A program made the translations under genes and the position numbers. The notes beneath the pieces are model-generated. The model was given only the letters and a program-made list of their open reading frames with translations. It did no database searches and was not told where the DNA came from. Below, one piece after another: positions 1-21,011 of a DNA stretch of 64,000 bases. Every line of letters begins with the position of its first letter. The first letter of the stretch is position 1. Origin of the DNA: a virus; the IMG/VR virus record IMGVR_UViG_3300036768_001133, positions 1-64,000 of that record, one strand, 5' to 3'.

Positions 1-278
<278 letters not shown>

Positions 279-280
279 AA

Positions 281-490: not shown

Positions 491-491
491 A

Positions 492-776: not shown

Positions 777-777
777 A

Positions 778-1693: not shown

Positions 1694-1696
1694 AAA

Positions 1697-3111: not shown

Positions 3112-3112
3112 A

Positions 3113-4494: not shown

Positions 4495-4727
4495 AACTTA
4501 AATATTTTAATAGCTACCCATTTAAATATCATAAATACAAATATGCCTAATGAAACATATAATAGACATAAAGAAAATATATCTGTTATAGACCAATCAT
4601 AAATATCTAATATGACATTTATCTTTTCATCTTGCATATTAAATACCATTACACGTATAGTAATAGATACTATGATACCTAATACACTATACATTATCAT
4701 ACTGCTTGAATTAAATAGGTTTTTCAT
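4491..4727 (-). CDS. Small membrane protein (2 TM)
   Basis: Two hydrophobic segments. Confidence 0.55.
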   Translation of the reverse strand: MKNLFNSSSMIMYSVLGIIVSITIRVMVFNMQDEKINVILDIYDWSITDIFSLCLLYVSLGIFVFMIFKWVAIKIFKL

Positions 4728-4730
4728 ATA

Positions 4731-5618
4731 TTATAGAAAATTACCTGTAATTAAATTACTATCTATAATAATACCATTGTAACTATCAGGGATACGACCA
4801 CTTGTAATATGTTGCAATAGCACACAATTTTGCATTTCAAGTCTTGTAATGTTAGGATTAGTGCTATCGCAAACACTTGGCAATGTATTGTGTATTATAC
4901 AATTTTTATAGCTTATTTCTGTTGTTCCTGCACTTCCACTTAAACTATCAAATCTATGATAATGTAACGTCGTATTTTCTCCTAAAATACAATTATCAAA
5001 AACAACTTTTCCGCTATTTATTCTGGCAATAAGTTTGCGTGTCCTATAGTTGTAAAAATGCATAAAATATCCTGTGCTTATTGCAGGCATATTAGTATAC
5101 GTAGTACATTCACTTATATCGGCTCTACTTCCATAAGCCGCTGAAATATTATATCCTTGTATTAAAGAACTCTTTGCAAATAAATTTAAAGTGCTTGAAG
5201 TATTTATTGTAAGTGTAAAACCAATAAGAACACTTTTAATAGATAAATATCCACTGCAATTTGTAGCATTAAGATTTAAAATATAGCCGTTATTACCTCC
5301 TCCTACAATATCTATATATGAACAACTAACTAAATTTATAGTAGATATTTTATTTATTACATTATCATTATTTATTTCATAATATATGAAAATATCATTT
5401 CTACTGCTTAACGTATAACTTCCATTATAGTCCCCATTAAAAATATGTATACAATCCCCATTTTGACAAATATCAAAAGCCCTTTGCAAAGATACAGGCT
5501 TATTTATCTTTCCTAATGCTTGTGCTCTTGTAAGCGTTGTACTACCATTTTCACTTACAAATAATGTTCGTCCTATACTTGGTATTTTCTCACCTGCACT
5601 AATTAAATCTATCCCCAT
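4731..5618 (-). CDS. Beta-helix (pectin-lyase-like) tailspike-type protein
   Basis: TLFVSENG...SLQRAFD...GDCIHIFNGDY cap motif; NCI/NCV stacking repeats. Confidence 0.6.
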   Translation of the reverse strand: MGIDLISAGEKIPSIGRTLFVSENGSTTLTRAQALGKINKPVSLQRAFDICQNGDCIHIFNGDYNGSYTLSSRNDIFIYYEINNDNVINKISTINLVSCSYIDIVGGGNNGYILNLNATNCSGYLSIKSVLIGFTLTINTSSTLNLFAKSSLIQGYNISAAYGSRADISECTTYTNMPAISTGYFMHFYNYRTRKLIARINSGKVVFDNCILGENTTLHYHRFDSLSGSAGTTEISYKNCIIHNTLPSVCDSTNPNITRLEMQNCVLLQHITSGRIPDSYNGIIIDSNLITGNFL

Positions 5619-5620
5619 AA

Positions 5621-6427
5621 TTAGTATTGCATTTCTATTATTCTTAACTGACCCGAAGTTACTGAAAAGTTAATGCTTGGCAATGCTTGTCTATGCTGAC
5701 TATTTGCCGTAAATATTATTGGTGGAAAAGTCTCATCATAAAATAACCCATTGATAGTACCAGCTCCTCCACTATGAAATATAAACGCTACACTATAAAT
5801 TCCTGAACTTGTCGCTCCAAAAAAAGGTGCAGTGTAATCAAACTGCAAAATATTATGAAAACTTAATGGACTTGGCGAAGATATGAAATTGTATATCCCT
5901 GTTACATTTGTATCTATATTTGCTATATAAGATAATATAGATGCTATATTAGCATCTATATTTCCCATATATACATTGATACTTGCAACATCTGTTTGTA
6001 TTGTACTTAATATAGTGCTAATACCTGTTAAAGTGCTATCCATATTGACTAAAGTACTATCTATATTAGACAATGTACTATCCATATTAGTAGTAGTATT
6101 GTCTATACTTGTTAATAGTACCTCTAAATCTTGTATGTTTGTATCTATGTTAGTAAGAAGTGCATCTATATTAGCTATATTAGTATCTATATTAGATAGG
6201 TATGTATTTGTAGTAGTTATCAAACTTTCAACATCATCTACCGAATTGTATATGTTTGCAAGTGTACTATTAGTAACTACTAATTTATTATCTATATCTT
6301 GTAATTCTGCTAATATAGCATTTAACTCGGCAGAACAATTACAACCACTCACAGAGGTTAGTAGTTCTATTATTCGCCTTGTCCTTAACTCTATCTGCTT
6401 AATGTTATCAAATTGCTCTGACTTCAT
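5621..6427 (-). CDS. Long heptad-repeat coiled-coil protein (fibre shaft-like)
   Basis: 7-aa periodicity NIDTNIA/NIDSTLV/NMDSTLS over more than 100 aa; beta-rich C-terminal domain. Confidence 0.65.
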   Translation of the reverse strand: MKSEQFDNIKQIELRTRRIIELLTSVSGCNCSAELNAILAELQDIDNKLVVTNSTLANIYNSVDDVESLITTTNTYLSNIDTNIANIDALLTNIDTNIQDLEVLLTSIDNTTTNMDSTLSNIDSTLVNMDSTLTGISTILSTIQTDVASINVYMGNIDANIASILSYIANIDTNVTGIYNFISSPSPLSFHNILQFDYTAPFFGATSSGIYSVAFIFHSGGAGTINGLFYDETFPPIIFTANSQHRQALPSINFSVTSGQLRIIEMQY

Positions 6428-8706
6428 AGCACATTTTTAATTTCTTTTCTTCTTATTATTTCTTTACTTTTTTGCTCTAATGCCACTGCATTCTCATATT
6501 CTTTCCTTTCCAAATTTAATAACTCTTGTTTTAACTTCAAAATTTCTTGCTTATATTTTTTATCTATTTCATTCTTTTCTTTCTCTAATTGTGCTTTCTG
6601 TAAGTTTTCATTCCTTGCTATCTCTAACTCTAACATCTTTATTTCTTTCATCTCTTTTAGTTTCATCTGTTCTATTTGCAGTTTTATCTCCATCTCTTTC
6701 ATCTTCATTTCCATTTCTTTGTCAGGTTGATTGGCTTGCTGTTGCTTCATAGCTTCCATTTGCTTTTCTGCTTCCTCTATCTTTGATAATATCTTACTTT
6801 CTAACTCATTTATACTATCTACCTTTAATAACCTAATTATATCACTTGCTTTCATCATTTGATTTTGCATCATACTTCCTAACATACCTTTTAATTCCTC
6901 AAAATACCTATTCTCTTTTACATTGTCCGTCATAAATATACCATAATCAGCAAGCAAGAAATCCTGACTTAACTTAAATATTTCCTGTTTCCCATCTCCT
7001 AATACATATGTTAAAGGCGTATTAACATTATGAATGTAATAATAATGTTTAGCATAATTCAAAAATCCTTCTAATACTTCCTTAAACACTTTGCTTTGAA
7101 AATAATATAATACTGCTGTGGCATAACTTCCTTGCCTTATTGCTCTATCTATCTGCCCTACTAAATCTTTTTGAAACATTTGTCCTTGCCTTTGCCTATT
7201 AAATCCACTTATCCTATCTACTTCATTTCTAATATCCTCTAACATTTGCGTTATTACAGATATACTTGCATCTAAACTATCATTATAGCTTTGAAATTGA
7301 TTAAACTGCCCTTGTCCTAATGAACTATCTATTATTAACAATCCTAACTTTCTGTAATACAATAAATCGTGTAATTCTAAACCTTTTGGTAATTGCGATA
7401 TATCATATATTACCCCTTTTACACCACTTAAAGCTATCATTCGTTCTCTATGATAGTTTAAGATATTATACAACTCTTGCAAATCCTTTAAATAATATAC
7501 TAAACTAAACTCCTCGCCTGTACTATCTATCTTAAACTCTAATCCCCCATAATGCAACTTGACATAATAAGGATTGCTAAATGAACGCATTTGTATATTA
7601 CTCTTCCCTATCTTATCCCATACATATATATCACTACCTATACAAACAAACTCATACAATTCTTGCATATACCTGCTCTCTTTACTCTTTATCGTTTTTC
7701 TATTAACATTATCTTTTTCTGTTAATAGCTTTACATAATTGACACCATATTTCCCTTCTATTTCAGCAAGTATTCGTTTAGATATGCTCTTCCATTGACC
7801 AATATACACCTCTATCTTATCTTGTGTATCTTGCAAATAATAATTTGGATTGTATCCTAAATCTTGATAATAACTCTTTACCATCTCTACAAAATGATAA
7901 TACTCGTTAGTAAGATAGTAATTTGATTGCCTATCTAACTTTTCTTTATCTTCATCAGTCAAATAATCTTGGTATCTATCTAATATCTGTTCCCTTGTCA
8001 AATATAAACGCTCACAAATCCAATTGCTATCTGCTATGTTTTCTATCCCTTCCTCGTTAGAATATACTAAATTGTAACTTGGTATTACCCTAATCCCTAT
8101 CTTACTTTTATAGTTTCCTTCCTCATATCTCCAAAAACACTTACCTACTTCTAATATACTCGCAAATAAAGCAGTCCTTATCCCCTTAAAATCTAAACTT
8201 AACTCAAAATATTTTAATAACTTCTCACATAATATTTCTACTTCCATTAAATAATCTCGCCCTATATTTTCTTTTAATTGCCTTAACTTACGCTCATCTA
8301 ATACCTCCATCTGCTTTGCACCCGCTAATGCCTTCTCAAACTCGTTATACAAAAACTTCATTAACTCTATATGTACCTTGTACTCCTTATACAATAACCC
8401 ATCTTCATCTATCCTACGTATATGATAATTGTATATCTGCTCCGTCTCCTCCCCTAATGCTACCTGCAAAACAGGTCTTATTAAAGGATAATTCTTTAAC
8501 TTTACAGGATACTCCTTCCCAAACTCCTTTGTAATATACTCAAACTTCTTTTCCGATAAATTACCCTGCAAAATATTATACACTAAATAGTCCTTTACCC
8601 TCCTGCTATAATAATGATTAAAACTATTCCTTATAGCATCTATATTCTCCTTTAACCAATCCCTATTCTTGTCCTTTTCTGATATGTTCTGTCTTGGTAA
8701 TAACAT
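6424..8706 (-). CDS. Portal protein (crAss-like)
   Basis: 760 aa; KNYPLIRPVLQVALGEE, LKDLQELYNILNYHRE, ISGFNRQRQGQ, C-terminal coiled coil; downstream of TerL. Confidence 0.88.
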   Translation of the reverse strand: MLLPRQNISEKDKNRDWLKENIDAIRNSFNHYYSRRVKDYLVYNILQGNLSEKKFEYITKEFGKEYPVKLKNYPLIRPVLQVALGEETEQIYNYHIRRIDEDGLLYKEYKVHIELMKFLYNEFEKALAGAKQMEVLDERKLRQLKENIGRDYLMEVEILCEKLLKYFELSLDFKGIRTALFASILEVGKCFWRYEEGNYKSKIGIRVIPSYNLVYSNEEGIENIADSNWICERLYLTREQILDRYQDYLTDEDKEKLDRQSNYYLTNEYYHFVEMVKSYYQDLGYNPNYYLQDTQDKIEVYIGQWKSISKRILAEIEGKYGVNYVKLLTEKDNVNRKTIKSKESRYMQELYEFVCIGSDIYVWDKIGKSNIQMRSFSNPYYVKLHYGGLEFKIDSTGEEFSLVYYLKDLQELYNILNYHRERMIALSGVKGVIYDISQLPKGLELHDLLYYRKLGLLIIDSSLGQGQFNQFQSYNDSLDASISVITQMLEDIRNEVDRISGFNRQRQGQMFQKDLVGQIDRAIRQGSYATAVLYYFQSKVFKEVLEGFLNYAKHYYYIHNVNTPLTYVLGDGKQEIFKLSQDFLLADYGIFMTDNVKENRYFEELKGMLGSMMQNQMMKASDIIRLLKVDSINELESKILSKIEEAEKQMEAMKQQQANQPDKEMEMKMKEMEIKLQIEQMKLKEMKEIKMLELEIARNENLQKAQLEKEKNEIDKKYKQEILKLKQELLNLERKEYENAVALEQKSKEIIRRKEIKNVL

Positions 8707-8729
8707 ATATTAAACACGTTTTTTATACA

Positions 8730-8737
8730 CAAATATA
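8730..8737 (-). promoter_or_regulatory. Bacteroidota sigma-A -7 element (TATATTTG) upstream of the portal gene
   Basis: Matches TAnnTTTG, about 24 bp before the start codon. Confidence 0.55.
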
Positions 8738-8777
8738 AAATTTTTATTTTTCTATCCCTATTACATAATAAAAAAAA

Positions 8778-9227
8778 TTATGTATTAGACCTATTATCAA
8801 ATACATAATCTATTACCTTGCCTCTATCCTTGTAATATCCCTTATAGATAAGTTTAGGGTTTATAGCATATACTCCACGACCTATGCGTATTAAAACATT
8901 ACAAGATACCAAATTATATATGCTTTTTTCTACACACCTTATACTAATACCTAATGTATCCCCTATTATACCCTTATTACGTTTATTTAATACAATATGC
9001 ACCAAATCACTACCATAATAGACCTCTCCTAATAAATAGAATAATATCCTATAATCTGTAATATTCACTAAACAACTACACCAACTCATATCCTCCACAT
9101 ATAACTGCACAAACATTTCTACCTCTACACGCTTCACTATACTACTACGCTCCACTAATACACTACCTCCACCTACATTCGTAGTGTCTAAACGCTCATA
9201 TATTACCTTCCTTGTTCGCTTGGACAT
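8778..9227 (-). CDS. RepL-like winged-helix replication/maintenance protein
   Basis: HTH (IGDTLGISIRCVEKSIYNLVS) plus GRGVYAINPKLIYKG; paralogous to 16239..16721. Confidence 0.75.
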   Translation of the reverse strand: MSKRTRKVIYERLDTTNVGGGSVLVERSSIVKRVEVEMFVQLYVEDMSWCSCLVNITDYRILFYLLGEVYYGSDLVHIVLNKRNKGIIGDTLGISIRCVEKSIYNLVSCNVLIRIGRGVYAINPKLIYKGYYKDRGKVIDYVFDNRSNT

Positions 9228-9254
9228 ATACTATTTTTATATGAAAAAAACTTC

Positions 9255-9320
9255 ATTAACGAACTATTGGTTCGGTATTAACGAACTATTGGTTCGGTAT
9301 TAACGAACTACTGGTTCGGT
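9255..9320. repeat. Iteron-like array A: 3 x 22 bp ATTAACGAACTA(T/C)TGGTTCGGT
   Basis: Tandem copies at 9255, 9277, 9299; internal dyad CGAAC-N5-GTTCG; just upstream of the RepL-like gene. Confidence 0.9.
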
Positions 9321-9481
9321 ACTTTTTTCGTTAATTCCTTATCTATCAAGCAGATACGTATTCATTTGCTATTATCTCACTCTAGCAAAAACTATTACCT
9401 AAAACTACATAAAAAAAATAACAAAAATACCTTATCTAAGGCATATTTGTTACTCCTATGTATAAACCTAACTCCTAAAAA

Positions 9482-9910
9482 CTAATTCTCAACTTTGCTA
9501 ATATCTACCTTTTCAAAATTCATCACTAACCTAAACTTCCCCTTCATCAATATATCACTCACCCTATACAACCCTCTCCTAACCCTCTCTAAAAAACCAT
9601 AATCCTCTAATACCCTCAATATCATTAACAAATATACACGCTTCACACCTAATAACTCCATCAAATACCTCATACCCTCCCTGTCCCTCGTGCTAAATAA
9701 ACCATTCCCATATAATACACTTATCTCATATATAGCCTTCATACAACGTGTAAAATTTATTAAACGCTCATCTCCTAAACCCCTCCCCATCATATAACCC
9801 ATAAACTCTATCATATCATATACATTCCCACCCCCTACAACTACCTCTATATAACCATTCCCTATCTCCCTAAAATTAAAAAACTCCTTTAACTTTACAA
9901 ACCCTTTCAT
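9482..9910 (-). CDS. Putative winged-helix DNA-binding protein
   Basis: LMELLGVKRVYLLMILRVLEDYGFLERVRRGLYRV. Confidence 0.55.
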   Translation of the reverse strand: MKGFVKLKEFFNFREIGNGYIEVVVGGGNVYDMIEFMGYMMGRGLGDERLINFTRCMKAIYEISVLYGNGLFSTRDREGMRYLMELLGVKRVYLLMILRVLEDYGFLERVRRGLYRVSDILMKGKFRLVMNFEKVDISKVEN

Positions 9911-9921
9911 AATATAATAAT

Positions 9922-11772
9922 TTATCCAAATACAAATTTATCCCCCTCCCTACGCCATGTAGGAAACTTAAAACTACTACTACGCTCCTCAAAACCTAAA
10001 CGCAACTCCTCATCATATATCAAACATAACATACTCGCTATCGTCCTGTCATACTCATTCCCCTCAAAATTAAAATTCATTATGTCTTCCACTTGCTCCC
10101 TTATCCATAACTTCTCCATACCCTCCTTCAAATACTTACTAAACCTTTCCACAGCAAACATCTTCCTCCTATAATCCATAACATAACCATACTTGTTCGT
10201 TACCCTACTATACTTTAACCCTATATTCAATAACCTCGGACTACTCGCTAATATACTACCCCAACCTACCTGCTTCAAATACGAAATTATACCTATCTTA
10301 CTATGCTCCACCATCACCTTCGCATTGTAATACAAACATAAACTTAATACACCCTCGTAAAAATCCTCTACATTGCTCGGTCTATCTACATACTCCGCAA
10401 CAAACTTCCCCTCCAACCTGTCAAATACATATACAGCCCCCTTACTCTTACTCCATAAACTCTTGTCTTGGTCATAACTATCACAACCCGCTATGTACCT
10501 CCCCTCCTCCACTACCCCACCTACACGTATAGGCTCGTCTATTATTACAAAATTCCCTAACCTGTCCTCCTTAAACTCTACCTCCACCTCAACACCACTC
10601 CTATATCCATTACAATATAATACACCCCTCTTCACTATTTCCCTATACTCCCTATCACTTATCAATAACAACTCCTCTAACCGCTTCCTCACAAACGAAA
10701 ATGGCGTTATATTGCTTACTAAAAACGCTTCATTTACCTCAAACGGCATCTCTTGTATAAAACTCTCATATGCCCCTATATCACCACTCTCTAATAACTT
10801 GTTACGCTTCCCCTCTAAATAAACCCTCGCCCCAACTTCATCACTTACCCCATCCTCACCATAATACCCCTCTAACTTCTTGTAAGCAGGTATAAAATAA
10901 CATACCCTCTTCCCATTATCAACCTCAAAACTATACAAATTAAAAGCATCAGGATTAAAAAACATATCCCTCGCCTCTATACTACCACCACTCTTCATCT
11001 CTCCACCAGTACCAAATAATATCGCTACACCAGTCCTTATACTACCCCTGTACAAACTATTCTCCACAGCCTTGTAACTATCCTTCAAATTGCTCTTCCA
11101 ACTACCTACCTCATCTAATATAACCCTCCTCGGTCTCCCACCCCTCGCCTTACCACTATCATCAAATATTATCATCTCTACCTCACTATTAAAACCCTTT
11201 CGCAACCTCTCCCCCTTCTCCCCTATATACTCTACCCCACTCATTATATACCCCTCCTTGTCCTTTATCTTACTATGACGCATCTCCTTCGGCAAACTAT
11301 CTAATCCCTCCACCATCTTCTTCCATAACTTTATACCATGTGGATACGTACTCGCACCCAATAAAGCATAACTATTCCTGTAAAATGTATAACTATGCGA
11401 TAATATACAAGCCCCTATGTAACTCTTACCATAACCCCTCCCAGTTATTACAAGCAAATTCTTCCCACTACTAAATGCTAATTCCACTAAATAAAATAAC
11501 TCCCTGTCCTCCTCACTATAATTCGGATAACCTAATACTACCTTACCACCCTCTAACTTGTTTATCTTAAAATAATTCAAAAAAAAATAATACTCCCCAG
11601 TTATCAACTTACCCCCTACTTCATACCCGTATAAACACCTATTCAACTCCTCCCTCCACCAACCTATATACCCCTCCTCTCCCTCTACATAAGGACAACC
11701 TAACCTCGCCCTAATCAATTCATCTATATACCTGCGCTCCATAATAAAATATATTTTAATAAAATATACCAA
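9922..11772 (-). CDS. terL: Terminase large subunit
   Basis: Walker A TGRGYGKS, Walker B VILDEVG, GTGGEM, RNaseH-like YIAGCDSYD...DRTIASM; crAss-type N-terminus ITGEYYFFLNY. Confidence 0.93.
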   Translation of the reverse strand: MVYFIKIYFIMERRYIDELIRARLGCPYVEGEEGYIGWWREELNRCLYGYEVGGKLITGEYYFFLNYFKINKLEGGKVVLGYPNYSEEDRELFYLVELAFSSGKNLLVITGRGYGKSYIGACILSHSYTFYRNSYALLGASTYPHGIKLWKKMVEGLDSLPKEMRHSKIKDKEGYIMSGVEYIGEKGERLRKGFNSEVEMIIFDDSGKARGGRPRRVILDEVGSWKSNLKDSYKAVENSLYRGSIRTGVAILFGTGGEMKSGGSIEARDMFFNPDAFNLYSFEVDNGKRVCYFIPAYKKLEGYYGEDGVSDEVGARVYLEGKRNKLLESGDIGAYESFIQEMPFEVNEAFLVSNITPFSFVRKRLEELLLISDREYREIVKRGVLYCNGYRSGVEVEVEFKEDRLGNFVIIDEPIRVGGVVEEGRYIAGCDSYDQDKSLWSKSKGAVYVFDRLEGKFVAEYVDRPSNVEDFYEGVLSLCLYYNAKVMVEHSKIGIISYLKQVGWGSILASSPRLLNIGLKYSRVTNKYGYVMDYRRKMFAVERFSKYLKEGMEKLWIREQVEDIMNFNFEGNEYDRTIASMLCLIYDEELRLGFEERSSSFKFPTWRREGDKFVFG

Positions 11773-11773
11773 C

Positions 11774-12289
11774 CTATATCAACCTGTCTATTAAACCCTC
11801 CTCCATATTCCCCCTCCTACGCTTACTGCCAGATACACCCCCTAACCCTAATACCAATCCCAACTCCTTCCTCAATTTCACCATATCTAATATCGCCTTC
11901 ACCTTCTTCGGCTCACTCTCTACATCTATATCACTCCCACTATAATCCCTAACTACCCTGTCTATACGCTCCACTAACCTCCTATAAACACGCTCCTCCT
12001 GATTGCCTACCTCCTCTAATATCCTATCCACTAAATTAACCAATACCCCCAATAAATTACTATACTCCTCCCTGCTCATCTCCCTACTAAATATGTCCCT
12101 GTATATCACCTCCCCACGCAACGTAATGTCCCCATATACATATACACTGCAATAATACCAATATACATACCTCCTCAAAAAATATTCCTCAACCTCCCCT
12201 AAACCTACTACCAAATTACGCCAATATAAACGATAATCCTCACTTACCTCATATCTATCCCCAATACGCTCTATTATACCTAATTCCAT
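11774..12289 (-). CDS. Putative terminase small subunit
   Basis: Immediately upstream of TerL; C-terminal RRGNMEEGLID. Confidence 0.5.
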   Translation of the reverse strand: MELGIIERIGDRYEVSEDYRLYWRNLVVGLGEVEEYFLRRYVYWYYCSVYVYGDITLRGEVIYRDIFSREMSREEYSNLLGVLVNLVDRILEEVGNQEERVYRRLVERIDRVVRDYSGSDIDVESEPKKVKAILDMVKLRKELGLVLGLGGVSGSKRRRGNMEEGLIDRLI

Positions 12290-12292
12290 ATA

Positions 12293-13063
12293 CTAATCCC
12301 CTTTTTTACTTATACACTTGCATACACCATATAACTCACTAATATCTAAACTCTCACCAACCCCATAACGCTTGTTACCATAATTCACCCAACCTATATT
12401 CCCCAACCTGAACCTTATCGTAAAATTATTCCCATTCCTGCCATAATGCCCAAAATCTAAACTACTATCACCTCCCCTTAACCTTAATAATAACCTTAAT
12501 AAACTACCCCATAAAGCCTCTAAATACCCGTGAAATACTAAATGACCATAATCACTACATAACATCCTATACCTCCATAAATAACTACCTAATACATCCC
12601 CTCCCCTCAATATACCCCTGTAAAATATACCCATTACCCTCAATAAATAAAAATATACATATAACCTCCAATGAAATAAATACCTATCCTTTATCACTAC
12701 TACATTATACCCCCTCTCCAATATCTCCCTGTACATCAACCCATAATCTATATCTATAAACCTGTTTATCCTTAACCTGTAATCCTGTAAATAATATATC
12801 TCCCTTAAACAAACACCATTGTAAAATAAACCATTCCCCATCACCATTATACTATAATAATCCCCCTCCCCCTCCCCACCTAATAACCAATCCTCCATCA
12901 ATAAACCCCCATATATACCACCACTTATACATACTAAACCATTGCAATTCCTATGACTATACATTATGTTCATCATAAACATAAATAATATCTCCCCAAT
13001 TATACCACTATACCCATAACCACGCATTATACCCCTAATACGCTCCTTTAATGAAATAACCAT
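12293..13063 (-). CDS. Hypothetical protein with extreme G/R/Y/L bias
   Basis: 256-aa ORF with 0 Pro, 1 Ala, 1 Thr, 1 Gln. Confidence 0.55.
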   Translation of the reverse strand: MVISLKERIRGIMRGYGYSGIIGEILFMFMMNIMYSHRNCNGLVCISGGIYGGLLMEDWLLGGEGEGDYYSIMVMGNGLFYNGVCLREIYYLQDYRLRINRFIDIDYGLMYREILERGYNVVVIKDRYLFHWRLYVYFYLLRVMGIFYRGILRGGDVLGSYLWRYRMLCSDYGHLVFHGYLEALWGSLLRLLLRLRGGDSSLDFGHYGRNGNNFTIRFRLGNIGWVNYGNKRYGVGESLDISELYGVCKCISKKGD

Positions 13064-13278
13064 AACAACCTACAATTTCATAAAAAAATACAAAAATAAA
13101 AATAAATCCCTACAAAATTAAAAACTTATACCACTACTACAAACAAAAATCTAAAAATTGTCCGATAATAATAACAAAATACTATAAATCATAAAATAAC
13201 CAAATAACCTAAAAACATCTTGATAAACATAAAATATGCCAATGAACATAAGGGTAATACCCAAAGTACCCCCCAATC

Positions 13279-13635
13279 GTGAAACTAAATGAAATTCGTA
13301 TGAGAAAGAAACAAGAAAATCTTGCCAAAGATTTTGACGCTGCAGTCAAACACAACAGGCAGGTATTGTTGGATTTAGGTATAAATCTAACAACAGCTAA
13401 AAAGGGCACATTTGAGGTGTCACTTTCGAAAAAGAAAGTTTCAAGAAGAAACTTCACAAAAAACGAAGTGGAGCAAAGGGAGCTATTCTTCATTAGCTCC
13501 AAATGCGGGAGTCTAAATTTTCCTGCAGATATGCTTGTGCTAACCAGTCCTAAGGTTAGCACAAAGTTAGAAGTGGCTCAGATTGAATATAACCAACGAG
13601 GTTATATTCAAAGGGTTATTGGTTCGTTCCAATAA
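13279..13635 (+). CDS. Hypothetical early protein (first plus-strand gene; start may be ATG 13300)
   Basis: 118-aa ORF followed by a terminator. Confidence 0.6.
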   Translation: MKLNEIRMRKKQENLAKDFDAAVKHNRQVLLDLGINLTTAKKGTFEVSLSKKKVSRRNFTKNEVEQRELFFISSKCGSLNFPADMLVLTSPKVSTKLEVAQIEYNQRGYIQRVIGSFQ

Positions 13636-13647
13636 CCCGTGTTGTGT

Positions 13648-13672
13648 GGGGGCAATTGCCCCCTCTTTTTTT
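13648..13672 (+). terminator. Intrinsic terminator
   Basis: GGGGGCAATTGCCCCC palindrome followed by TCTTTTTTT. Confidence 0.85.
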
Positions 13673-13725
13673 CAGCTTTTTTGGCTTTTTTTCGGTATTG
13701 CTTATTTATTTAAACAAAAAAAAGT

Positions 13726-13893
13726 ATGAAAAGATACCTTATTCATTACTATATACCCTCCCAAAATGTATTTTTGAGAGGGGTATTCGAAGCCGAAAGC
13801 AAATCGGCTTTAATTTCTGAATTGAGAGATTTAGGGTATAGAATTTACAATATTACTTCTATACCTAAACATTTTCATTCTTCTTCCAATTAA
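13726..13893 (+). CDS. Small hypothetical protein (55 aa, not in ORF track)
   Basis: MKRYLIHYYIPSQNVFLRGVFEAESKSALISELRDLGYRIYNI...; A-rich leader. Confidence 0.55.
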   Translation: MKRYLIHYYIPSQNVFLRGVFEAESKSALISELRDLGYRIYNITSIPKHFHSSSN

Positions 13894-13922
13894 CCACTTA
13901 AACCACTTAAACTTAAACGAAA

Positions 13923-14297
13923 ATGAAAGAAGGAAAAAAATACAAAATTATTAGACTCACCCCATACGTTATTAGTGTATGGGGGGACAATGGATATCTA
14001 AGTATTCGAACCCTAATAAGGAACTTATGTAACAAAGGGTTCTGTACAAGCTTCCTTGTGAAAAACAAGGAAATGCTTGGGTCTAATCCAACTATGTTGG
14101 ATAATGAAATTATTGATAATATGTTATTCCTTTACAGCCTCGATATAGAGGCGGTAAAGAAAGAATACGAAAGTATTCGTTTGTTTTTAGCCGAAAACCT
14201 AATTAGGTTTTCGGATGAACAATTTCAAAAGAGATATTCTGCCTCCTTTTATAGGAGGTATAGAAGCCTGCCCGACATATGGATCGAGGTAGGATAA
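13923..14297 (+). CDS. Hypothetical protein
   Basis: 124-aa ORF followed by a terminator. Confidence 0.6.
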   Translation: MKEGKKYKIIRLTPYVISVWGDNGYLSIRTLIRNLCNKGFCTSFLVKNKEMLGSNPTMLDNEIIDNMLFLYSLDIEAVKKEYESIRLFLAENLIRFSDEQFQKRYSASFYRRYRSLPDIWIEVG

Positions 14298-14303
14298 TAG
14301 TAT

Positions 14304-14343
14304 AGATAGATAACGACATTAGTTGTTATCTATCTTTTTTTTT
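14304..14343 (+). terminator. Intrinsic terminator
   Basis: AGATAGATAACGAC-atta-GTTGTTATCTATCT followed by a T run. Confidence 0.8.
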
Positions 14344-14761
14344 GGTTTTTATGTTAGCAGATAAATCAAATTTTTCACTTTCTTCAAGCTCAAAACCCTT
14401 ATTAGGTGAGGGCTTGAAAGTAATAAAGGTATTAGGCACTATGAAGTGCCAAAACCTGTTGAGATATATAAACGAAAACTTTGACAAGTTTTCGTTTTAT
14501 GTAAATAATACTCTTTATTTATATTGTATAGATGAAGAGTATGAAGAGCAATATTATATAGGTGAATTAGAGAAGCCTATATATGGGGATTTCATAGTAA
14601 TGATAGTACCACCAAGTTTGGGTACTATTTATTACGATACAGATTACTATGGTAATATAGTGTATTACTATAGTAATATAGTATATAGTAATGCTAATGA
14701 TTTGGATAGTATTACTATGGAGAAAGAATACTATGGTATAAGATGTTTAATATCTATATAG
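14342..14761 (+). CDS. Hypothetical protein (likely ATG 14351)
   Basis: ORF in the early block. Confidence 0.55.
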   Translation: MVFMLADKSNFSLSSSSKPLLGEGLKVIKVLGTMKCQNLLRYINENFDKFSFYVNNTLYLYCIDEEYEEQYYIGELEKPIYGDFIVMIVPPSLGTIYYDTDYYGNIVYYYSNIVYSNANDLDSITMEKEYYGIRCLISI

Positions 14762-14804
14762 GGATTTAAATAAAAAAAACTTAGGGTAATTGAAAAAATG
14801 ACTT

Positions 14805-14933
14805 ATGGCAAGGATTCTATTCTTTATATTTCTTTTACTACTTTTAAATGCTGTTATGGTAATATTAGCATATTCGCAAATAAAATATGGATTGTATAAA
14901 ACAAAAAATATAAAATACATTAAAAAAATATAA
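14805..14933 (+). CDS. Small hydrophobic protein (42 aa), paralog or remnant of 18347..18556
   Basis: MARILFFIFLLLLLNAVMVILAYSQIKYGLYKTKNIKYIKKI. Confidence 0.45.
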   Translation: MARILFFIFLLLLLNAVMVILAYSQIKYGLYKTKNIKYIKKI

Positions 14934-14946
14934 AATACATTAAAAT

Positions 14947-15525
14947 ATGGAGTTCATTATTGAATTAAGCAGGTTGAGGGAAACTCCCTGCGAAAGATAC
15001 CTTAAACATTTTGAAAATGGGAAAGTAGATGCTCTCAAGCTATTTAGAGAGCTTGGACAGAAATACGAATGGTTATACAACCATTCGGATTATGATATTA
15101 TAAGATTTGAAATAGAAAACGGGATATTTAATTGGGAAGAATATAGTTACTATGTTCCCCAATATTGTCCTGAATATTTTGATGGAAATAAATACAATTG
15201 GAGAGAAGATAGCTGGGCAATAGTTCAATATTGTCCAGAGCATTTTGATGGGGATAAATACAACTGGGAAAAAGATAGTTGGGCAATAGTTAAATTTTGT
15301 CCTGAATACTTTGATGGAAATAAATACAACTGGAAAGATCAAGGTTGGGCAATAGTTAAATATTGTCCTGAATACTTTGATGGAAATAAATACAATTGGG
15401 AGAAACATAGCTATTATGTAGCTATGTATTGTCCTAAATTGTTGGACAAGAATAAATACAATTGGAGAGAAGATAGTTGGGCAGTATCTGAATATTGTCC
15501 CGAACTATTGAAATATAAACCTTAA
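14947..15525 (+). CDS. 22-aa repeat protein, paralog 1 (6 repeats)
   Basis: About 63-aa conserved N-domain plus repeats W-xxxS(W/Y)(A/Y)(V/I)xxYCPxxxDxxKYN. Confidence 0.85.
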   Translation: MEFIIELSRLRETPCERYLKHFENGKVDALKLFRELGQKYEWLYNHSDYDIIRFEIENGIFNWEEYSYYVPQYCPEYFDGNKYNWREDSWAIVQYCPEHFDGDKYNWEKDSWAIVKFCPEYFDGNKYNWKDQGWAIVKYCPEYFDGNKYNWEKHSYYVAMYCPKLLDKNKYNWREDSWAVSEYCPELLKYKP

Positions 15526-15533
15526 CATTTCAT

Positions 15534-15565
15534 AACACACAAAGTTACAAACTTTGTGTGTTTTT
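15534..15565 (+). terminator. Intrinsic terminator
   Basis: AACACACAAAGTT-aca-AACTTTGTGTGTT followed by Ts. Confidence 0.75.
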
Positions 15566-15757
15566 ATTTGTGTTCGTTATTAGTTCAAAAATGTAACAAC
15601 AAAAATTTAAAAAATAGGCAAGTGTGATAAAGCCAATTACATAGACTACAAGTTCCTAGATAAAAAGCCCACTATTAGAGATTTTCAAGAAAAAAATCTA
15701 CTTACAAATTTTGAACTTTTTCAAGATATTGCCGCTTAACTCACGTTATATAATATT

Positions 15758-15795
15758 TATATGTGTGTAATAATTCACACATATAGATTTTTTTT
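15758..15795 (+). terminator. Hairpin/terminator in the long intergenic region
   Basis: TATATGTGTG-N8-CACACATATA followed by a T run. Confidence 0.5.
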
Positions 15796-15876
15796 ATGCT
15801 TACGCATACGCTAAATATATAAGAAAAGAAAATATAGGATAATACATTGTTTATCAATGTTTTACGATAAAAATTA

Positions 15877-15937
15877 TTACTCTATGGGGCTAATGAAATT
15901 ACTCTGTGGGAGTAATTTCAATAGTCTGTCAGAGTAG
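15877..15937. repeat. Iteron-like array B: 3 degenerate units, 22-bp period
   Basis: TTACTCTATGGGGCTAA (15877), TTACTCTGTGGGAGTAA (15899), ATAGTCTGTCAGAGTAG (15921); dyad TTACTC-N5-GAGTAA. Confidence 0.7.
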
Positions 15938-16045
15938 TAAAAAATTTAAAAGAAGTCCTTTTTTTTTAGTTTATGTGTGCAATATACTAATATATAGTAA
16001 AATAAGAGTTAAATAATTGATTATCATATATTTAACTCTTATGAA

Positions 16046-16110
16046 AATGTCGTTTTCGGTTGATAATAATGTCGTTTTCGGTTAATAATAATGTCGTTTT
16101 CGGTTAATAA
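16046..16110. repeat. Iteron-like array C: 3 x 22 bp AATGTCGTTTTCGGTT(A/G)ATAAT
   Basis: Copies at 16046, 16068, 16090; upstream of the RepL-like gene. Confidence 0.9.
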
Positions 16111-16196
16111 AATACACTATTTTGAGTGTATTTTATACATTATTTGATATGTATAAAGAAAATGTATTTTAAGCTTTTTTTTTAATTTTTAATACT

Positions 16197-16204
16197 TATA
16201 TTTG
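16197..16204 (+). promoter_or_regulatory. Bacteroidota sigma-A -7 element (TATATTTG)
   Basis: TAnnTTTG about 35 bp upstream of the RepL-like gene. Confidence 0.55.
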
Positions 16205-16238
16205 TGTGTATTAAATACTAATTATTAGATGTAAAAAT

Positions 16239-16721
16239 ATGAAAAATGCAAAGACAAAAATTTATGAAGAGATTAAAACTGTAATAAACGAAGATGGGGA
16301 AATAATTACAGCTGAATTTACAACAGTAAAAAAAGTAACTAAGGAAACGTTCTTACAGGTTTATTTAGATGATTTTTACTCCTTAATGAGAATTAGAGAG
16401 GGAAACGAATACAAATTAGTTCTGTGGATAGGTAAAAATATGAATTTCGATAATGAAATAATACTGGTTAAGGAAATAAAAAATAGAATCGCCAATGAAA
16501 TTGAGTGTAATGTAAGAACCATAGATAACTCAATACGGTCGTTGGTATCTAAGGGCATTTTAATCAAGTCTGGGAGGGCTATTTTTACTTTAAACCCACA
16601 TTTATTTTTCAAGGGCAGCTTAGACCAGCGGAATAAACTCAAAAAGCTTATAAAGAAAGTAGAATACGATTTCTTAGAAGAAGATGAAACAAAAGAAATA
16701 CAAAGTGATAGCAAAGGTTGA
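16239..16721 (+). CDS. RepL-like winged-helix replication/maintenance protein
   Basis: FLQVYLDD, IANEIECNVRTIDNSIRSLVSKGIL HTH, GRAIFTLNPHLFFKG. Confidence 0.8.
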   Translation: MKNAKTKIYEEIKTVINEDGEIITAEFTTVKKVTKETFLQVYLDDFYSLMRIREGNEYKLVLWIGKNMNFDNEIILVKEIKNRIANEIECNVRTIDNSIRSLVSKGILIKSGRAIFTLNPHLFFKGSLDQRNKLKKLIKKVEYDFLEEDETKEIQSDSKG

Positions 16722-16920
16722 TAATAACAAGTTTGTAAAGTATAACGTAAATAATTTGATTCTTTTCACGAAATTTCTTGACAGGAGCTTTCAGGTTTGT
16801 TGGCGTTGGTTCAATGTGATAGCAATATTTTGTTTGTTTTATATGGCTACTATTTTTACATTTGTGTTAGTAGTTAGTTTTATATTATTACCTATAAAGG
16901 TTATACTATGGTTAGTATGA
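16684..16920 (+). CDS. Small hypothetical protein with hydrophobic C-terminus
   Basis: 78 aa; KFVKYNVNNL...FLDR...WRWFNV followed by TM-like segments. Confidence 0.5.
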   Translation: MKQKKYKVIAKVDNNKFVKYNVNNLILFTKFLDRSFQVCWRWFNVIAIFCLFYMATIFTFVLVVSFILLPIKVILWLV

Positions 16921-18209
16921 TAGATGTTGAATTAGACAGCATATATTATTGTCTAATAAACAATAGCAATATACGTATATTTGATAGGGAATACTATACA
17001 AAGGGTGATACTTTGTATATGTATGACAAGTTAGTTGAAATATATAATAAAGAAAAATATGTCAGTTTGAATATATTTAGGAATGAGATAAAGGGGGATA
17101 GTATATTGCATAAGTATTTATCTGTATATAATGATAAATATGTATGTAGTTATACTATTGAAGAATGTGAAAAGATAATGAGGAGAGACTACAATAGAAG
17201 GGTATTTATAGATATGATAAATGATAAGTCCTTATTAAGGGCTAGTGATGATAGGATATTGGAGGTGATGATGGAGGTCATAAGCAAGTTTAGGGGGAAT
17301 AAGATGGAAAATATAGTTAGTAATTTTGATAAGATGGTTGAATACATAATTAATGTAGATAATAACAGGTATAAAATAGGTATAGAGGGTATAGATAGTT
17401 CTATATCTATAGAGCCTGATAGGTTTATAGTGATAGGTGGGGCGAGTGGTAGTGGGAAGACAGCCTTCAGTGTATTTTTAATAAACAAGCTATGTCAGTT
17501 GTATAGTGATAGCTTGTATGTTTTATTTATAAGCCTTGAGATGAGTGAGATAAGAGTGATGATGAGGTTAATAAGTTTATTATCGGGAAAGAGCATTGGG
17601 GAGTTAAAGGCTGTAGATAAAAGTTTTTTTGAAGGGTATAGGGATATAATTAGTGGTTATTCATTAGATATAATGTATAGCACTATGGATATTCCAAAGT
17701 TATCTGCAGTATTGCAGATGCATATAAATGAAGCAAATAGAAAAGGTAAGATACCTGTGGTTTTTATAGACCATTTTGGAGAAGTAAGTGGTTTAGATGA
17801 ACATACAGCGAAATCTAACACAGATAAAGTAACCGCTTTGTGTAAGGATGTAGCAAGACAAGGCGGCATATGTTTCGGTCTTACGCAATTGCGTAAGGAT
17901 TTGTTAGATAAGAGGAATGAAGGCAGTTATTACAAGCCTTCAAATGGATACATTATGAATAGTCAGAGTGTAGAAGCGAGGGCAGATGTAATAATGCACT
18001 TGTGGAGACCTGAATATCATAATGTATTAGAGATAATAGAAGAGGAAAAAGATATGATAAGAGTAATAGATACAAGAGGTAGTATATGTATAGTAAATGA
18101 TAAGAACAGGGATTTTAAGAAGGGTGATATATGGCTGGATTGTGATATTAAAACGAATAGTTTTAAGGATATTCATAGTAGTAAAATACAAATTATTAAT
18201 AAATTTTAA
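16908..18209 (+). CDS. DnaB-like replicative helicase (SF4)
   Basis: GGASGSGKT, FISLEMS, VFIDH, LTQL, ADVIMHLWRP, KNR. Confidence 0.92.
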   Translation: MVSMIDVELDSIYYCLINNSNIRIFDREYYTKGDTLYMYDKLVEIYNKEKYVSLNIFRNEIKGDSILHKYLSVYNDKYVCSYTIEECEKIMRRDYNRRVFIDMINDKSLLRASDDRILEVMMEVISKFRGNKMENIVSNFDKMVEYIINVDNNRYKIGIEGIDSSISIEPDRFIVIGGASGSGKTAFSVFLINKLCQLYSDSLYVLFISLEMSEIRVMMRLISLLSGKSIGELKAVDKSFFEGYRDIISGYSLDIMYSTMDIPKLSAVLQMHINEANRKGKIPVVFIDHFGEVSGLDEHTAKSNTDKVTALCKDVARQGGICFGLTQLRKDLLDKRNEGSYYKPSNGYIMNSQSVEARADVIMHLWRPEYHNVLEIIEEEKDMIRVIDTRGSICIVNDKNRDFKKGDIWLDCDIKTNSFKDIHSSKIQIINKF

Positions 18210-18219
18210 TTTAATTTAA

Positions 18220-18396
18220 ATGGAAAAGAAAACCATCATTATTGAATGTATAGGCGAGCAATATTCTGCCTATATAGAAGATATACCTGGGTTAATATCT
18301 TTTGGTACTAACCTAAAAGAGGTATTGGATAACTTAGTGGAGGGATATGAATTACATATGGAACTATTGTCAGAACTGGACGGAGATAACTATTAA
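18220..18396 (+). CDS. HicB-like antitoxin N-domain protein (58 aa, not in ORF track)
   Basis: MEKKTIIIECIGEQYSAYIEDIPGLISFGTNLKEVLDNLVEGYELHMELL matches the HicB pattern YxAxxxDLPGxxxxGxTxxExxxNxxEAxEL. Confidence 0.7.
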   Translation: MEKKTIIIECIGEQYSAYIEDIPGLISFGTNLKEVLDNLVEGYELHMELLSELDGDNY

Positions 18397-18959: not shown

Positions 18960-19538
18960 ATGGAATTTATTGTTGAATTAGAAAAGCTAAGGGAAACACC
19001 TTGCGAAAGATACCTTGAACATTTTATAGATGGTAAAGTCGACGCTCTCAAACTATTTAGAGAGCTCGATGAACAATATGAATGGTTGTATGCATATTCG
19101 GACTATGATATAGTCCGTTATGAAATAGAAAATGGAATATTTGATTGGGAAAAACACAGCCGTTATGTTGCTGCGTATTGTCCTGAATATTTTGATGGAA
19201 ATAAATACAATTGGGAAAAATATAGCTGTTACGTTGCTCAATATTGTCCTCAATACTTGGACAAAGAGAAATACAATTGGGAAGTTGATAGTTGGGCAAT
19301 AGTTAAATATTGTCCGCAATATTTTGATAAAGAAAAATACAATTGGAAAACTGATAGCTGGGCAATAGCTGAATATTGCCCACAATATTTCGATAAAGAA
19401 AAATACAATTGGGAGAAACATAGCTATTATGTTGCTATGTATAGTCCTGAACTATTGGACAAAGATAAATATAATTGGAAAGAAGATAGCTGGGCAGTAG
19501 CTAAATACTGTCCCGAACTATTGAAATATAAACCTTAA
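18960..19538 (+). CDS. 22-aa repeat protein, paralog 2 (6 repeats)
   Basis: Same N-domain and repeats as paralog 1. Confidence 0.85.
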   Translation: MEFIVELEKLRETPCERYLEHFIDGKVDALKLFRELDEQYEWLYAYSDYDIVRYEIENGIFDWEKHSRYVAAYCPEYFDGNKYNWEKYSCYVAQYCPQYLDKEKYNWEVDSWAIVKYCPQYFDKEKYNWKTDSWAIAEYCPQYFDKEKYNWEKHSYYVAMYSPELLDKDKYNWKEDSWAVAKYCPELLKYKP

Positions 19539-19552
19539 TTATTTTTACTACA

Positions 19553-19611
19553 AAAGGCAAAACCCGAAAAGCCTGTAATAAAGTAGGGGTAAAAAAAACA
19601 AGTAAAAAAAA
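19553..19611 (+). promoter_or_regulatory. Conserved upstream element, copy 2
   Basis: AAAGGCAAAACCCGAAAAGCCTGTAATAAAGTAGGGGTAAAAAAAACAAGTAAAA. Confidence 0.55.
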
Positions 19612-20226
19612 ATGGAATTTATTATCGAATTAAGCAGGTTAAAAAAAGAACCCTGCGAAAGATATTTAAAGTATTTTATAGACGGCAAAATCGATGCTCT
19701 CAAGCTATTTAGAGAGCTTGGCGAACAATATGAATGGTTGTACAGACATTCGGATTACGATATTATAGGATTTGAAATAGAAAATGGAATATTTGATTGG
19801 GGAAAATATAGTTATTATATTGCTGAACTTTGTCCGCAATATTTGGACAAAGATAAGTATAACTGGAAGGAACATAGCTGGGCTGTTGCTGAATTTTGTC
19901 CCAAGCATTTGGACAAAGATAGATACAATTGGGAAGAAGATGGTTGGGTAGTTGCGAAATATTGTCCCGAACTATTGGACAAGGAGAAATATAACTGGGA
20001 AAAAGATAGCTATTATATTGCGAAATATTGTCCCGAGCATTTGGACAAGGACAAATACAATTGGGAGAAATGCAGCTGGGCTGTTGTTGAATTTTGTCCC
20101 GAGCATTTTGATAAGGATAAATATAATTGGAAAGAAGATAGTTGGGCAATAGCTCAATTTTGTCCCGAACTATTGAAATATAAAAAAGGCAAAACCCGAA
20201 AAACCTGTAAAAAAGTACAAAACTAA
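19612..20226 (+). CDS. 22-aa repeat protein, paralog 3 (6 repeats, extended C-terminus)
   Basis: Ends KYKKGKTRKTCKKVQN instead of KYKP. Confidence 0.85.
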   Translation: MEFIIELSRLKKEPCERYLKYFIDGKIDALKLFRELGEQYEWLYRHSDYDIIGFEIENGIFDWGKYSYYIAELCPQYLDKDKYNWKEHSWAVAEFCPKHLDKDRYNWEEDGWVVAKYCPELLDKEKYNWEKDSYYIAKYCPEHLDKDKYNWEKCSWAVVEFCPEHFDKDKYNWKEDSWAIAQFCPELLKYKKGKTRKTCKKVQN

Positions 20227-20231
20227 AAAGT
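20185..20231 (+). promoter_or_regulatory. Conserved upstream element, copy 3 (degenerate)
   Basis: AAAGGCAAAACCCGAAAAACCTGTAAAAAAGTAC. Confidence 0.45.
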
Positions 20232-21011
20232 ATGAAATTTATTGTCGAATTAAGCAGGTTAAAAAAAGAACCCTGCGAAAAATACCTTAAACATTTTGTA
20301 AATGGTAAAGCTGACGCTCTCAAATTATTTAGAGAGCTTGGCGAACAATACGAATGGTTGTACAGACATTCGGACTATGATATTATAGGATTTGAAATAG
20401 AAAATGGAATATTTGATTGGGAAAAATATAGCTATTATATTGCCCAATATTGTCCCGAGCATTTGGACAAAGAGAAGTATAACTGGGACGAAGATGGTCT
20501 TTATGTTGCCGAATATTGTCCCGAGAATTTGGACAAAGAAAAATACAATTGGAAAGACCATAGTTGGGCAATAGCCCAATATTGTCCCGAACATTTTGAT
20601 AAGGACAGATATAATTGGGAAGAATATAGTTATTATATTGCTAAATATTGTCCGCAATATTTAGACAAAGAGAAGTATAACTGGGAAAAACAAAGTTGGG
20701 CAATAGCCCAATATTGTCCCAAGCATTTTGATGAGGATAAATATAATTGGAAAGAACATGGTTATTATATAGCCTTATATTGTCCTCAATATTTTGATAA
20801 AGATAGATACAATTGGGAAAAACATAGCTATTATGTTGCGAAATATTGTCCCGAGCATTTGGACAAGGATAGATACAATTGGGAGCAATGTAGTCGCTAT
20901 GTTGCCCAATATTGTCCGCAATATTTGGACAAGGACAAATATAATTGGGAAGAACATATTTGGGCAGTAGCTCAATTTTGTCCCGAACTATTGAAATATA
21001 AACCTTATTAA
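20232..21011 (+). CDS. 22-aa repeat protein, paralog 4 (9 repeats)
   Basis: Same N-domain with nine repeats. Confidence 0.85.
   Translation: MKFIVELSRLKKEPCEKYLKHFVNGKADALKLFRELGEQYEWLYRHSDYDIIGFEIENGIFDWEKYSYYIAQYCPEHLDKEKYNWDEDGLYVAEYCPENLDKEKYNWKDHSWAIAQYCPEHFDKDRYNWEEYSYYIAKYCPQYLDKEKYNWEKQSWAIAQYCPKHFDEDKYNWKEHGYYIALYCPQYFDKDRYNWEKHSYYVAKYCPEHLDKDRYNWEQCSRYVAQYCPQYLDKDKYNWEEHIWAVAQFCPELLKYKPY

Follow-up and report, generated by a model that had tools for sequence, protein, structure and literature searches.

RepL (pfam05732) is listed as the initiator of the pSN2 plasmid family, and RepL plasmids, which are little studied, are counted among the rolling-circle replicons by convention (PMC5703833). 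For the prototypic crAssphage (Carjivirus communis), two divergent RepLs have been proposed as the two origins of a phage-plasmid (PMC10983915). Here, we describe two divergent RepL genes, each with its own phased array of sites, in the virus record IMGVR_UViG_3300036768_001133 (72,795 bp, with a 123-bp repeat at the record ends), of which bases 1–64,000 form the window that we analyzed. One gene (RepL-1), with array A upstream of it, is flanked by the terminase operon and the portal gene; the other (RepL-2) is preceded by arrays B and C and followed by a DnaB-like helicase gene (Table 1). With moderate confidence, we interpret this arrangement as two self-regulated cassettes, each combining a RepL-type origin with its initiator. 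The genome provides a genuine and clearly delimited case of a design that is already known, not an unprecedented one.

The small RepL plasmids (the staphylococcal pSN2 family, Selenomonas pONE430, and Butyrivibrio pOM1) resemble the present modules in encoding a PF05732 protein of ~150–200 amino acids with one winged helix and in carrying 2–4 units of 22-bp period 75–240 bp upstream of repL. The difference is that here two divergent cassettes reside inside a 72.8-kb virulent-type phage genome, one of them beside a phage DnaB gene. Carjivirus communis likewise has two RepLs, with a mutual identity of 24.6% compared with 27% here; one of them stands at the start of a gene block, and the predicted origin lies directly upstream of one repL (PMC10983915). 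The terms "iteron" and "direct repeats" occur nowhere in the main text of that paper, whereas arrays of sites are defined here; in addition, one of our modules sits in the packaging block and the other is a cassette that is present or absent among relatives. A further parallel comes from the pHW126-like plasmids, whose winged-helix Rep has been called a distant relative of pSN2 RepL. As described, this protein binds 20-bp iteron-like repeats at the origin, which has four such direct repeats and a palindromic element, and also binds inverted repeats at its own promoter and represses itself (bioRxiv 10.1101/2022.12.05.519187). Going by the published description of pHW126, pIGRK, and pIGMS31, their direct repeats would correspond to array C with its hairpins and their dyads to arrays A and B, whereas for their conserved region with a nick site we found no counterpart at this locus. 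Rep_3-type iteron plasmids (pPS10 RepA, F RepE, R6K Pi) and IncQ replicons (RepC/RepA) have phased 17–22-bp sites on one helix face beside an AT-rich stretch, together with self-repression via related inverted repeats. Our proteins differ from the Rep_3 initiators in having one winged helix instead of two, and a Pfam scan of both RepLs matched neither Rep_3 nor a RepC family, which sets them apart from IncQ as well.

Protein domain scans (Pfam and PHROG) covered the open reading frames (ORFs) within 6.4–19.5 kb. Both genes that a first-pass annotation, made from the sequence alone, had called RepL-like score above the curated Pfam cut-off of 20.3 bits (Table 1), and its DnaB call downstream of RepL-2 was borne out by DnaB_C and phrog_19 matches. 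RepL-1 and RepL-2 are the only RepL matches across the whole record and align with each other over 136 amino acids (E = 4e-19). The family is described as small (~18 kDa) proteins with a single helix-turn-helix or winged-helix domain (PMC5703833) and a highly conserved Asn-Pro pair after the wing (PMC10655114). With 149 and 160 residues and, in the RepL-2 model, a single winged helix, both proteins agree with this description, and the Asn-Pro pair is found as N123-P124 in RepL-1 and N119-P120 in RepL-2, in columns with a conservation of 90% or more in an alignment of 53 sequences. Distant homologues of RepL-1 number 261 at E ≤ 1e-3 (24–37% identity), and close relatives of this protein among 5.8 billion proteins are confined to its own cluster; RepL-2 has eight closer homologues. 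RepL relatives are present in Sodalis phage phiSG1 as well as on plasmids. Two RepLs per genome are unusual: a second RepL was found in none of 10 other records, nine of which had one Pfam match and one of which had none.

An AlphaFold2 (AF2) model of RepL-2, built from a 20-row alignment and with a mean predicted local distance difference test (pLDDT) of 67, shows the H-b-H-H-b-b topology of a winged helix, with pLDDT values of 78–94 at residues 50–125. A homodimer model of RepL-1 reached a score of 0.64, compared with 0.01 for the best control. Of 30 proteins solved as pairs of one chain, 20 reached this mark, as did 1 of 23 single-chain structures; these counts hold only roughly because we used our own alignment. 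The dimer runs had at least 72% of contacts in common and a partner pLDDT of at least 76, and the interface is symmetric, involving residues 36–70 and 127–132, conserved helices preceding the winged helix. The model suggests that RepL-1 is a symmetric homodimer, which would fit dyad or palindromic sites and makes binding to them more likely. The recognition helices of RepL-1 and RepL-2 differ, and that of RepL-2 is near-identical in an 85% relative (L007), as are the iteron cores of the two.

The three arrays of 22-bp period that had been noticed before differ in how they were detected. Tandem Repeats Finder (TRF) called arrays A (9255–9321, score 127) and C (16046–16110, score 123), each with period 22, 3.0 copies, and 97%. 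Array B is missing from TRF's 118 rows, and its dyad motif is not above chance in the window (4 matches with up to 3 mismatches, 8.0 expected), so that this part of the claim stands by phasing at offset 22. Requiring at least 30 of 44 matching positions at that offset, we obtained only three sites in the genome, A (43), B (30), and C (42), all of which adjoin RepL genes, and a value of 30 was not attained in any of 2000 dinucleotide-shuffled versions of the intergenic region. Array B is real but weak. The units of A and C occur three times each and nowhere else, and 0 of 100 shuffles gave three matches. A TTCGGT hexamer common to A and C was dropped, as by our estimate it is likely due to chance.

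The N5-spaced dyads described earlier are present in A (CGAAC-N5-GTTCG, inside a longer 9+4+9 palindrome) and in B (ATTACTC-N5-GAGTAAT), and C has no dyad. Array A spans −28 to −94 of RepL-1; relative to RepL-2, B lies at −298 to −363 and C at −128 to −193, 86 bp upstream of the candidate −7 box. Array A is kept along with RepL-1 in a 97% relative (L004) and in contigs from three sequencing runs (X3, X4, X6), where variants at 9275 and 9297 (G>T) render the arms perfectly symmetric and one at 9289 (T>C) falls in the 4-bp center. The array B variants, 15897 and 15917 (X2, X3), both fall between dyads. In L007, the 14–16-nt cores and the 22-bp period of array C are retained, and the 3′ spacer parts differ at most positions. 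L007 was the only RepL-2 relative retrieved by a metagenome scan, and a pattern search of viral contigs for the iteron pair gave no match.

RepL-2 is preceded by a 713-bp gene-free stretch in which the terminator of the upstream gene, B, hairpin 1, C, hairpin 2, an AT-rich spacer, a TAnnTTTG box, and the ATG at 16239 follow one another. TAnnTTTG is the Bacteroidota-type −7 box; with 193 occurrences in 64 kb it is frequent, and promoters marked by it are candidates only. These boxes are listed instead of sigma-70 promoters, a scan for which gave fewer matches than shuffle expectation. In L007, whose sequence stops before the position of array B, the distance between C and the conserved promoter is 89 bases longer. 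Array C is thus conserved without keeping a fixed register with the promoter, which is what one would expect of an origin element and not of a promoter operator. Two contigs of relatives lack the cassette altogether: 15797 is joined to 16819 in X6, with 2 letters between, and to 16822 in X3, with 5 letters between, and both run on into DnaB at ~94–96% identity. Judging from these joints, B, C, and RepL-2 (~1 kb) are gained or lost as a single unit among relatives, in the right-hand region, where mosaicism is general. A 78-aa ORF (16684–16920) covers the right cassette border and the DnaB promoter box, and for this reason it is probably not a gene.

The layout of an array before repL recurs across the family. 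We derived it in this analysis, and not from a published definition, as 2–4 units of 21/22-bp period within ~350 bp upstream of repL, and A, B, and C all conform to it. The alignment of 53 sequences (A2) was too diverse for a locus scan; a closer profile of 20 RepL-1 homologues (A3) was used and retrieved 16 viral loci, whereas scans of viral contigs with single RepL proteins gave one locus each and the A1 profile gave none. We added Dulem virus 41, with a RepL annotated in its record, and one unannotated record, and left out duplicates (L013, L017, L021), a locus whose upstream sequence is just 60 nt long (L011), and the window's own relatives, so that 14 loci remained. The signal was defined as five or more 12-mers that match in ≥10 of 12 positions at an offset of 21 or 22 within the upstream 400 nt. 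It was present at 9 of the 14 loci, compared with 0.1 on average and never more than 1 in 200 shuffles; control regions gave 0/14 inside the gene, 1/14 downstream, 0/11 far upstream, and 1/14 far downstream. TRF adds arrays at two more loci (L008 and L019). The viral arrays have 2–3 units, mostly dyads, at −70 to −350, and the dyad arrays are often found at divergent junctions. Related RepLs (L016 and L019/L020, 55% identical) have CCTAA...TTAGG half-sites in common, which, like the joint retention of recognition helix and iteron core in L007, hints that helix and site may co-vary. In Dulem virus 41, three arrays of two to three sequence types precede one RepL.

Plasmids show the same layout. 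RepL-2 matches 23 plasmid records at 24–35% identity, from which we chose eight RepL plasmids (1.5–4.1 kb) by hand for their small size. Within the 600 nt before repL, self-similarity peaked at offset 22 in all eight, as it did across the whole plasmid in seven, with the 2–4 units at −75 to −240. In pONE430 (1,527 bp), RepL is the sole annotated protein. This fact, together with the listing of RepL as the pSN2-family initiator, indicates that the RepL family does start replication, and by analogy with such plasmids, RepL-1 and RepL-2 probably act as replication initiators. The earlier proposal that two divergent RepL modules coexist, each with its own phased array as in RepL replicons, is in agreement with these data. 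Our search found no published statement of the array-before-repL rule, which the older primary papers on pSN2, pOM1, and pONE430 may hold. What is new in detail, within a known design, is the phasing seen across the family, the polymorphism of the cassette, and the model of the dimer. As separate observations on these loci, the gene right after RepL in L010, L011, and L014 encodes a T5orf172/MUG113-domain protein (E = 3e-7 to 3e-9), and the RepL matches in two large phage records (L009, 176.9 kb; L015, 170.2 kb) contain two in-frame TGA codons each, suggesting that these phages may read TGA as a residue.

The main rival interpretation is that the arrays are operators only, with the RepLs repressing or timing their own and neighboring genes and replication starting elsewhere. 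We consider this unlikely but far from negligible. A and B are dyads, as are most viral arrays, which lie 70–200 bp before the gene and often at divergent junctions, and lambdoid repressors use three operators spaced about two turns apart. The modeled RepL-1 dimer is symmetric. A Foldseek search of the RepL-2 model against the PDB returned generic winged-helix regulators of transcription only (best E = 0.019, none at E ≤ 0.001). Array A lies between the RepL-1 ATG, 28 bp away, and the only canonical −7 box upstream of that gene, a position that suits a plain operator, and a RepL-annotated protein from a Salmonella island, which is without the Asn-Pro motif, had no effect on replication (PMC10655114). 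Against an operator-only role, C is asymmetric, lies well upstream of its −7 box, and is displaced by a further 89 bp in the 85% relative; plasmids whose sole annotated protein is RepL have the same array layout; and the RepL-2 cassette moves as a self-contained unit.

Besides the position of A, the Salmonella protein, and the generic Foldseek matches, other observations count against our interpretation of two origin-plus-initiator cassettes. Five of the 14 viral loci are without the offset-21/22 signal, and the L019 and L020 RepLs are 98% identical, which reduces the independent loci to 13. A 1,271-bp Campylobacter RepL plasmid is reported with no tandem iterons in its description (PMC11389370). 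None of 15 neighboring ORFs scanned elsewhere placed DnaB next to RepL. RepL-2 must be dispensable for the lineage, as the cassette-free relatives still have DnaB. The dimer model also disagrees with a 2026 preprint, which infers that single-winged-helix initiators bind as monomers (10.1101/2024.09.03.610885).

The location of RepL-1 raises another possibility, namely that RepL-1 with array A is a pac-like packaging-recognition module that works with the large terminase (TerL), only RepL-2 being replicative. RepL-1 and A lie between TerL and portal and are conserved along with the packaging block, which is ~99% identical in contigs from three runs (X3, X4, X6; labeled hot springs, sediment, and aquatic), whereas the replication side is mosaic, and no small terminase was recognized among the ORFs scanned. 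We nevertheless regard this as improbable, because RepL-1 is a bona fide RepL, was modeled as a dimer and not as a ring, and has the array-before-own-gene layout that is also seen in plasmids that package nothing. Moreover, a relative with a 45%-identical TerL (L033) is without RepL at that place.

The first-pass annotation also placed the modules on either side of the GC skew flip and suggested that they may explain the skew. The skew changes sign at ~13.2 kb and ~27–29 kb, where gene orientation changes. The first flip lies 3.8 kb from A and 2.6–2.8 kb from B and C, so that the modules bracket it only loosely, and no repeat array was found at the junction itself (13064–13289). In the extreme block (8.8–13.1 kb), the bias forms a gradient that follows the leftward TerL operon and rises toward the 13.1-kb junction; the minus-strand genes of the block (window 8778–13063) are RepL-1, 9482–9910, TerL, 11774–12289, and 12293–13063. 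Their coding strand contains 2–7% C and 26–37% G, with A close to T, which relative to other genes is poor in C and A and rich in G and T, and the GC content of the block is 0.37–0.40 compared with 0.27–0.30 elsewhere. Residues with C-requiring codons account for 2–8% in the block and 13–24% in the other tabulated minus-strand genes; Ala, Pro, His, Gln, and Thr are almost absent from the block proteins, also from TerL. The same composition extends over TerL and the two preceding genes (264–3382) in L033, where no RepL follows TerL. Since the extreme block recurs without a RepL there, and since the sign tracks gene orientation, the RepL modules do not explain the skew. The rise toward the junction and the recurrence in so distant a TerL relative make the bias look positional and long-lasting (C>T plus A>G on the coding strand) and unlike a recent import. 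L033 also has, at 4699–5193, ~500 bp of nested 33/65/98-bp repeats in which short inverted motifs are frequent, located past the terminase block and immediately ahead of a RusA-like gene; this may be an origin- or pac-like region.

These results bear on the idea of dual, oppositely oriented IncQ-like strand-displacement origins with three orthogonal protein-array pairs that generate the skew, which we find very improbable. IncQ iterons have a 22-bp period, and a DnaB-family helicase adjoins RepL-2 and its 22-bp-phased sites. The block composition is of the kind made by single-stranded exposure, which yields C/A-poor, G/T-rich bias in mitochondrial DNA. RepL, counted among the single-winged-helix initiators, is placed in one superfamily with the RepC-domain winged-helix initiators (10.1101/2024.09.03.610885). 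The likeness to IncQ is only generic, in that the proteins match RepL and not RepC, DnaB is not the neighbor of RepL elsewhere, and relatives retain DnaB while the RepL-2 cassette is missing. The recurrence of the block in L033 without a RepL and the fact that the skew sign follows gene orientation speak against the idea as well. A period of ~22 bp is generic for iterons.

The idea of one protein per array required a third winged helix-turn-helix (wHTH) protein, assigned to the ORF at 9482–9910. Six approaches (Pfam, PHROG, Atlas, fold, hhalign, and homologue search) did not confirm this assignment. The best Pfam match was AbiEi_4 at E = 0.03, below the cut-off; we found no PHROG match, no named Atlas cluster, and no homologue outside its own lineage, and hhalign against RepL gave a probability of 0.1. 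A single-sequence fold was unusable (pLDDT 46), and a helix-Gly-hairpin motif resembling the RepL wing is all that remains. Array B needs no third protein in any case, given that the single RepL of Dulem virus 41 is preceded by three arrays.

We return to the reading of the two RepL modules as both origin and operator, and propose the following mechanism. Family membership, the arrays and their recurrence, the retention of cores and period, and the cassette polymorphism are shown by the data and the dimer is modeled, whereas binding, origin firing, helicase recruitment, and any division of labor between the modules are steps that we infer. Each RepL, most likely as a symmetric dimer, would bind the row of sites ahead of the gene that encodes it, the 22-bp spacing of the sites corresponding to two helical turns. 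In the RepL-2 cassette, array C, the two hairpins, and the AT-rich stretch of variable length would form the origin core, where bound RepL-2 may distort or nick the DNA at C and the phage DnaB, encoded next door, may be loaded. Array B would be a second, weaker set of sites of the same cassette, probably with a regulatory role. RepL-1 and A would constitute a second, orthogonal module that is fixed in the lineage within the packaging gene block, with array A serving as an operator for self-repression at the minimum, and probably as an origin too.

Table 1. Coordinates of the RepL modules and surrounding features in the window
Feature	Position	Strand	Basis or remark
Portal	6424–8706	minus	PHROG 1.5e-66
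RepL-1, 149 aa	8778–9227	minus	Pfam RepL PF05732, 3.8e-10, 40 bits
Array A: three abutting 22-bp palindromes (9-bp arms, 4-bp center)	9256–9321		TRF, offset-22 test
Lone array-A half-site, 1 mismatch, past third unit	9326–9334	minus	Fourth half-site
Hairpin (16-nt arms) and T-run, terminator-like end of TerL/9482–9910 transcript	9408–9452	minus	Read from sequence
TAnnTTTG box inside this hairpin	9429–9422	minus	Only canonical −7 box upstream of RepL-1
142-aa ORF downstream of TerL	9482–9910	minus	Putative third wHTH, unconfirmed
Large terminase (TerL)	9922–11772	minus	PHROG 1.8e-76
A-rich divergent junction, flip of gene orientation and GC skew	13064–13289		Skew and ORF map
Leftward TAnnTTTG boxes at junction	13120–13113, 13098–13091	minus	Motif scan
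Terminator of upstream gene, left cassette border	15755–15796	plus	Terminator scan; joints at 15797
RepL-2 cassette (B, hairpins, C, spacer, promoter, RepL-2)	15798–16818	plus	Joints of relatives
Array B: three degenerate dyads, exact 22-bp spacing	15876–15941		Sites 15876, 15898, 15920
Hairpin 1, 20-nt arms, 90%	16002–16042		Near-invariant in 85% relative L007
Array C: three asymmetric 22-bp direct repeats (iterons)	16046–16111	plus	TRF, offset-22 test
Hairpin 2, 12-nt arms, 100%, overlaps end of C	16107–16136		Partly retained in L007
AT-rich spacer, 86% A+T	16137–16238	plus	Variable length, +89 bp in L007
Candidate −7 box TAnnTTTG of RepL-2	16197–16204	plus	Motif scan
RepL-2, 160 aa	16239–16721	plus	Pfam RepL PF05732, 8.1e-14, 51.9 bits
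Candidate −7 box TAnnTTTG of DnaB gene	16857–16864	plus	Motif scan
DnaB-like helicase gene	16908–18209	plus	DnaB_C E 1.7e-18; phrog_19 3.5e-28

The portal and TerL matches to PHROG, the crAss-like phages that are the named relatives of TerL in the phage collection (27–28% identity, 189 records), and two ORFs of 4093 and 2882 aa in the window identify the source, as far as gene content can tell, as a distant, small crAss-like phage. Its host is probably a member of the Bacteroidota. A megablast search of 8000–18300 against phage records gave zero matches, and the intergenic regions had no Rfam or tRNA match above gathering scores. The portal gene has a TAnnTTTG box of its own. The terminator-like hairpin at 9408–9452 has few G-C pairs and was not listed by the consensus terminator scan.

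Two further stretches of the window drew our attention. At 13290–13700, a small plus-strand ORF is followed by perfect hairpins (13535–13564, 13583–13611, and 13613–13638) and by a strong G+C-rich terminator (13648–13663 with a T-run); this stretch has no Rfam or tRNA match and is swapped in one relative, where 13279 is joined to 13551 with 254 other letters. At 14947–15525 and 18960–21011, four ORFs are made of 66-bp (22-aa) tandem repeats in 5–8 copies (71–76%), the first of which is missing from relatives in several runs (joints 14801 to 15615 and 14754 to 15747).

How crAss-like phages start replication and how they persist without lysogeny are standing questions, and the published two-origin proposal for the prototypic crAssphage rests on prediction and coverage. 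It is a speculative possibility, and one that we hold only tentatively, that the two orthogonal modules provide two separately controlled replication starts, one fixed within the packaging block and one a mobile 1-kb cassette that comes and goes among strains, that a low-copy carrier or plasmid-like state can thereby exist alongside lytic replication, and that the 21/22-bp array marks the origin family-wide. If true, the array rule would range from 1.5-kb plasmids to 170-kb phages. The locus offers compact test objects in the 1-kb cassette with its iterons, a natural strain pair with and without the cassette, and a second module with palindromic sites. If confirmed, the array-before-repL rule would be a simple locator of origins or operators in RepL plasmids and phages.

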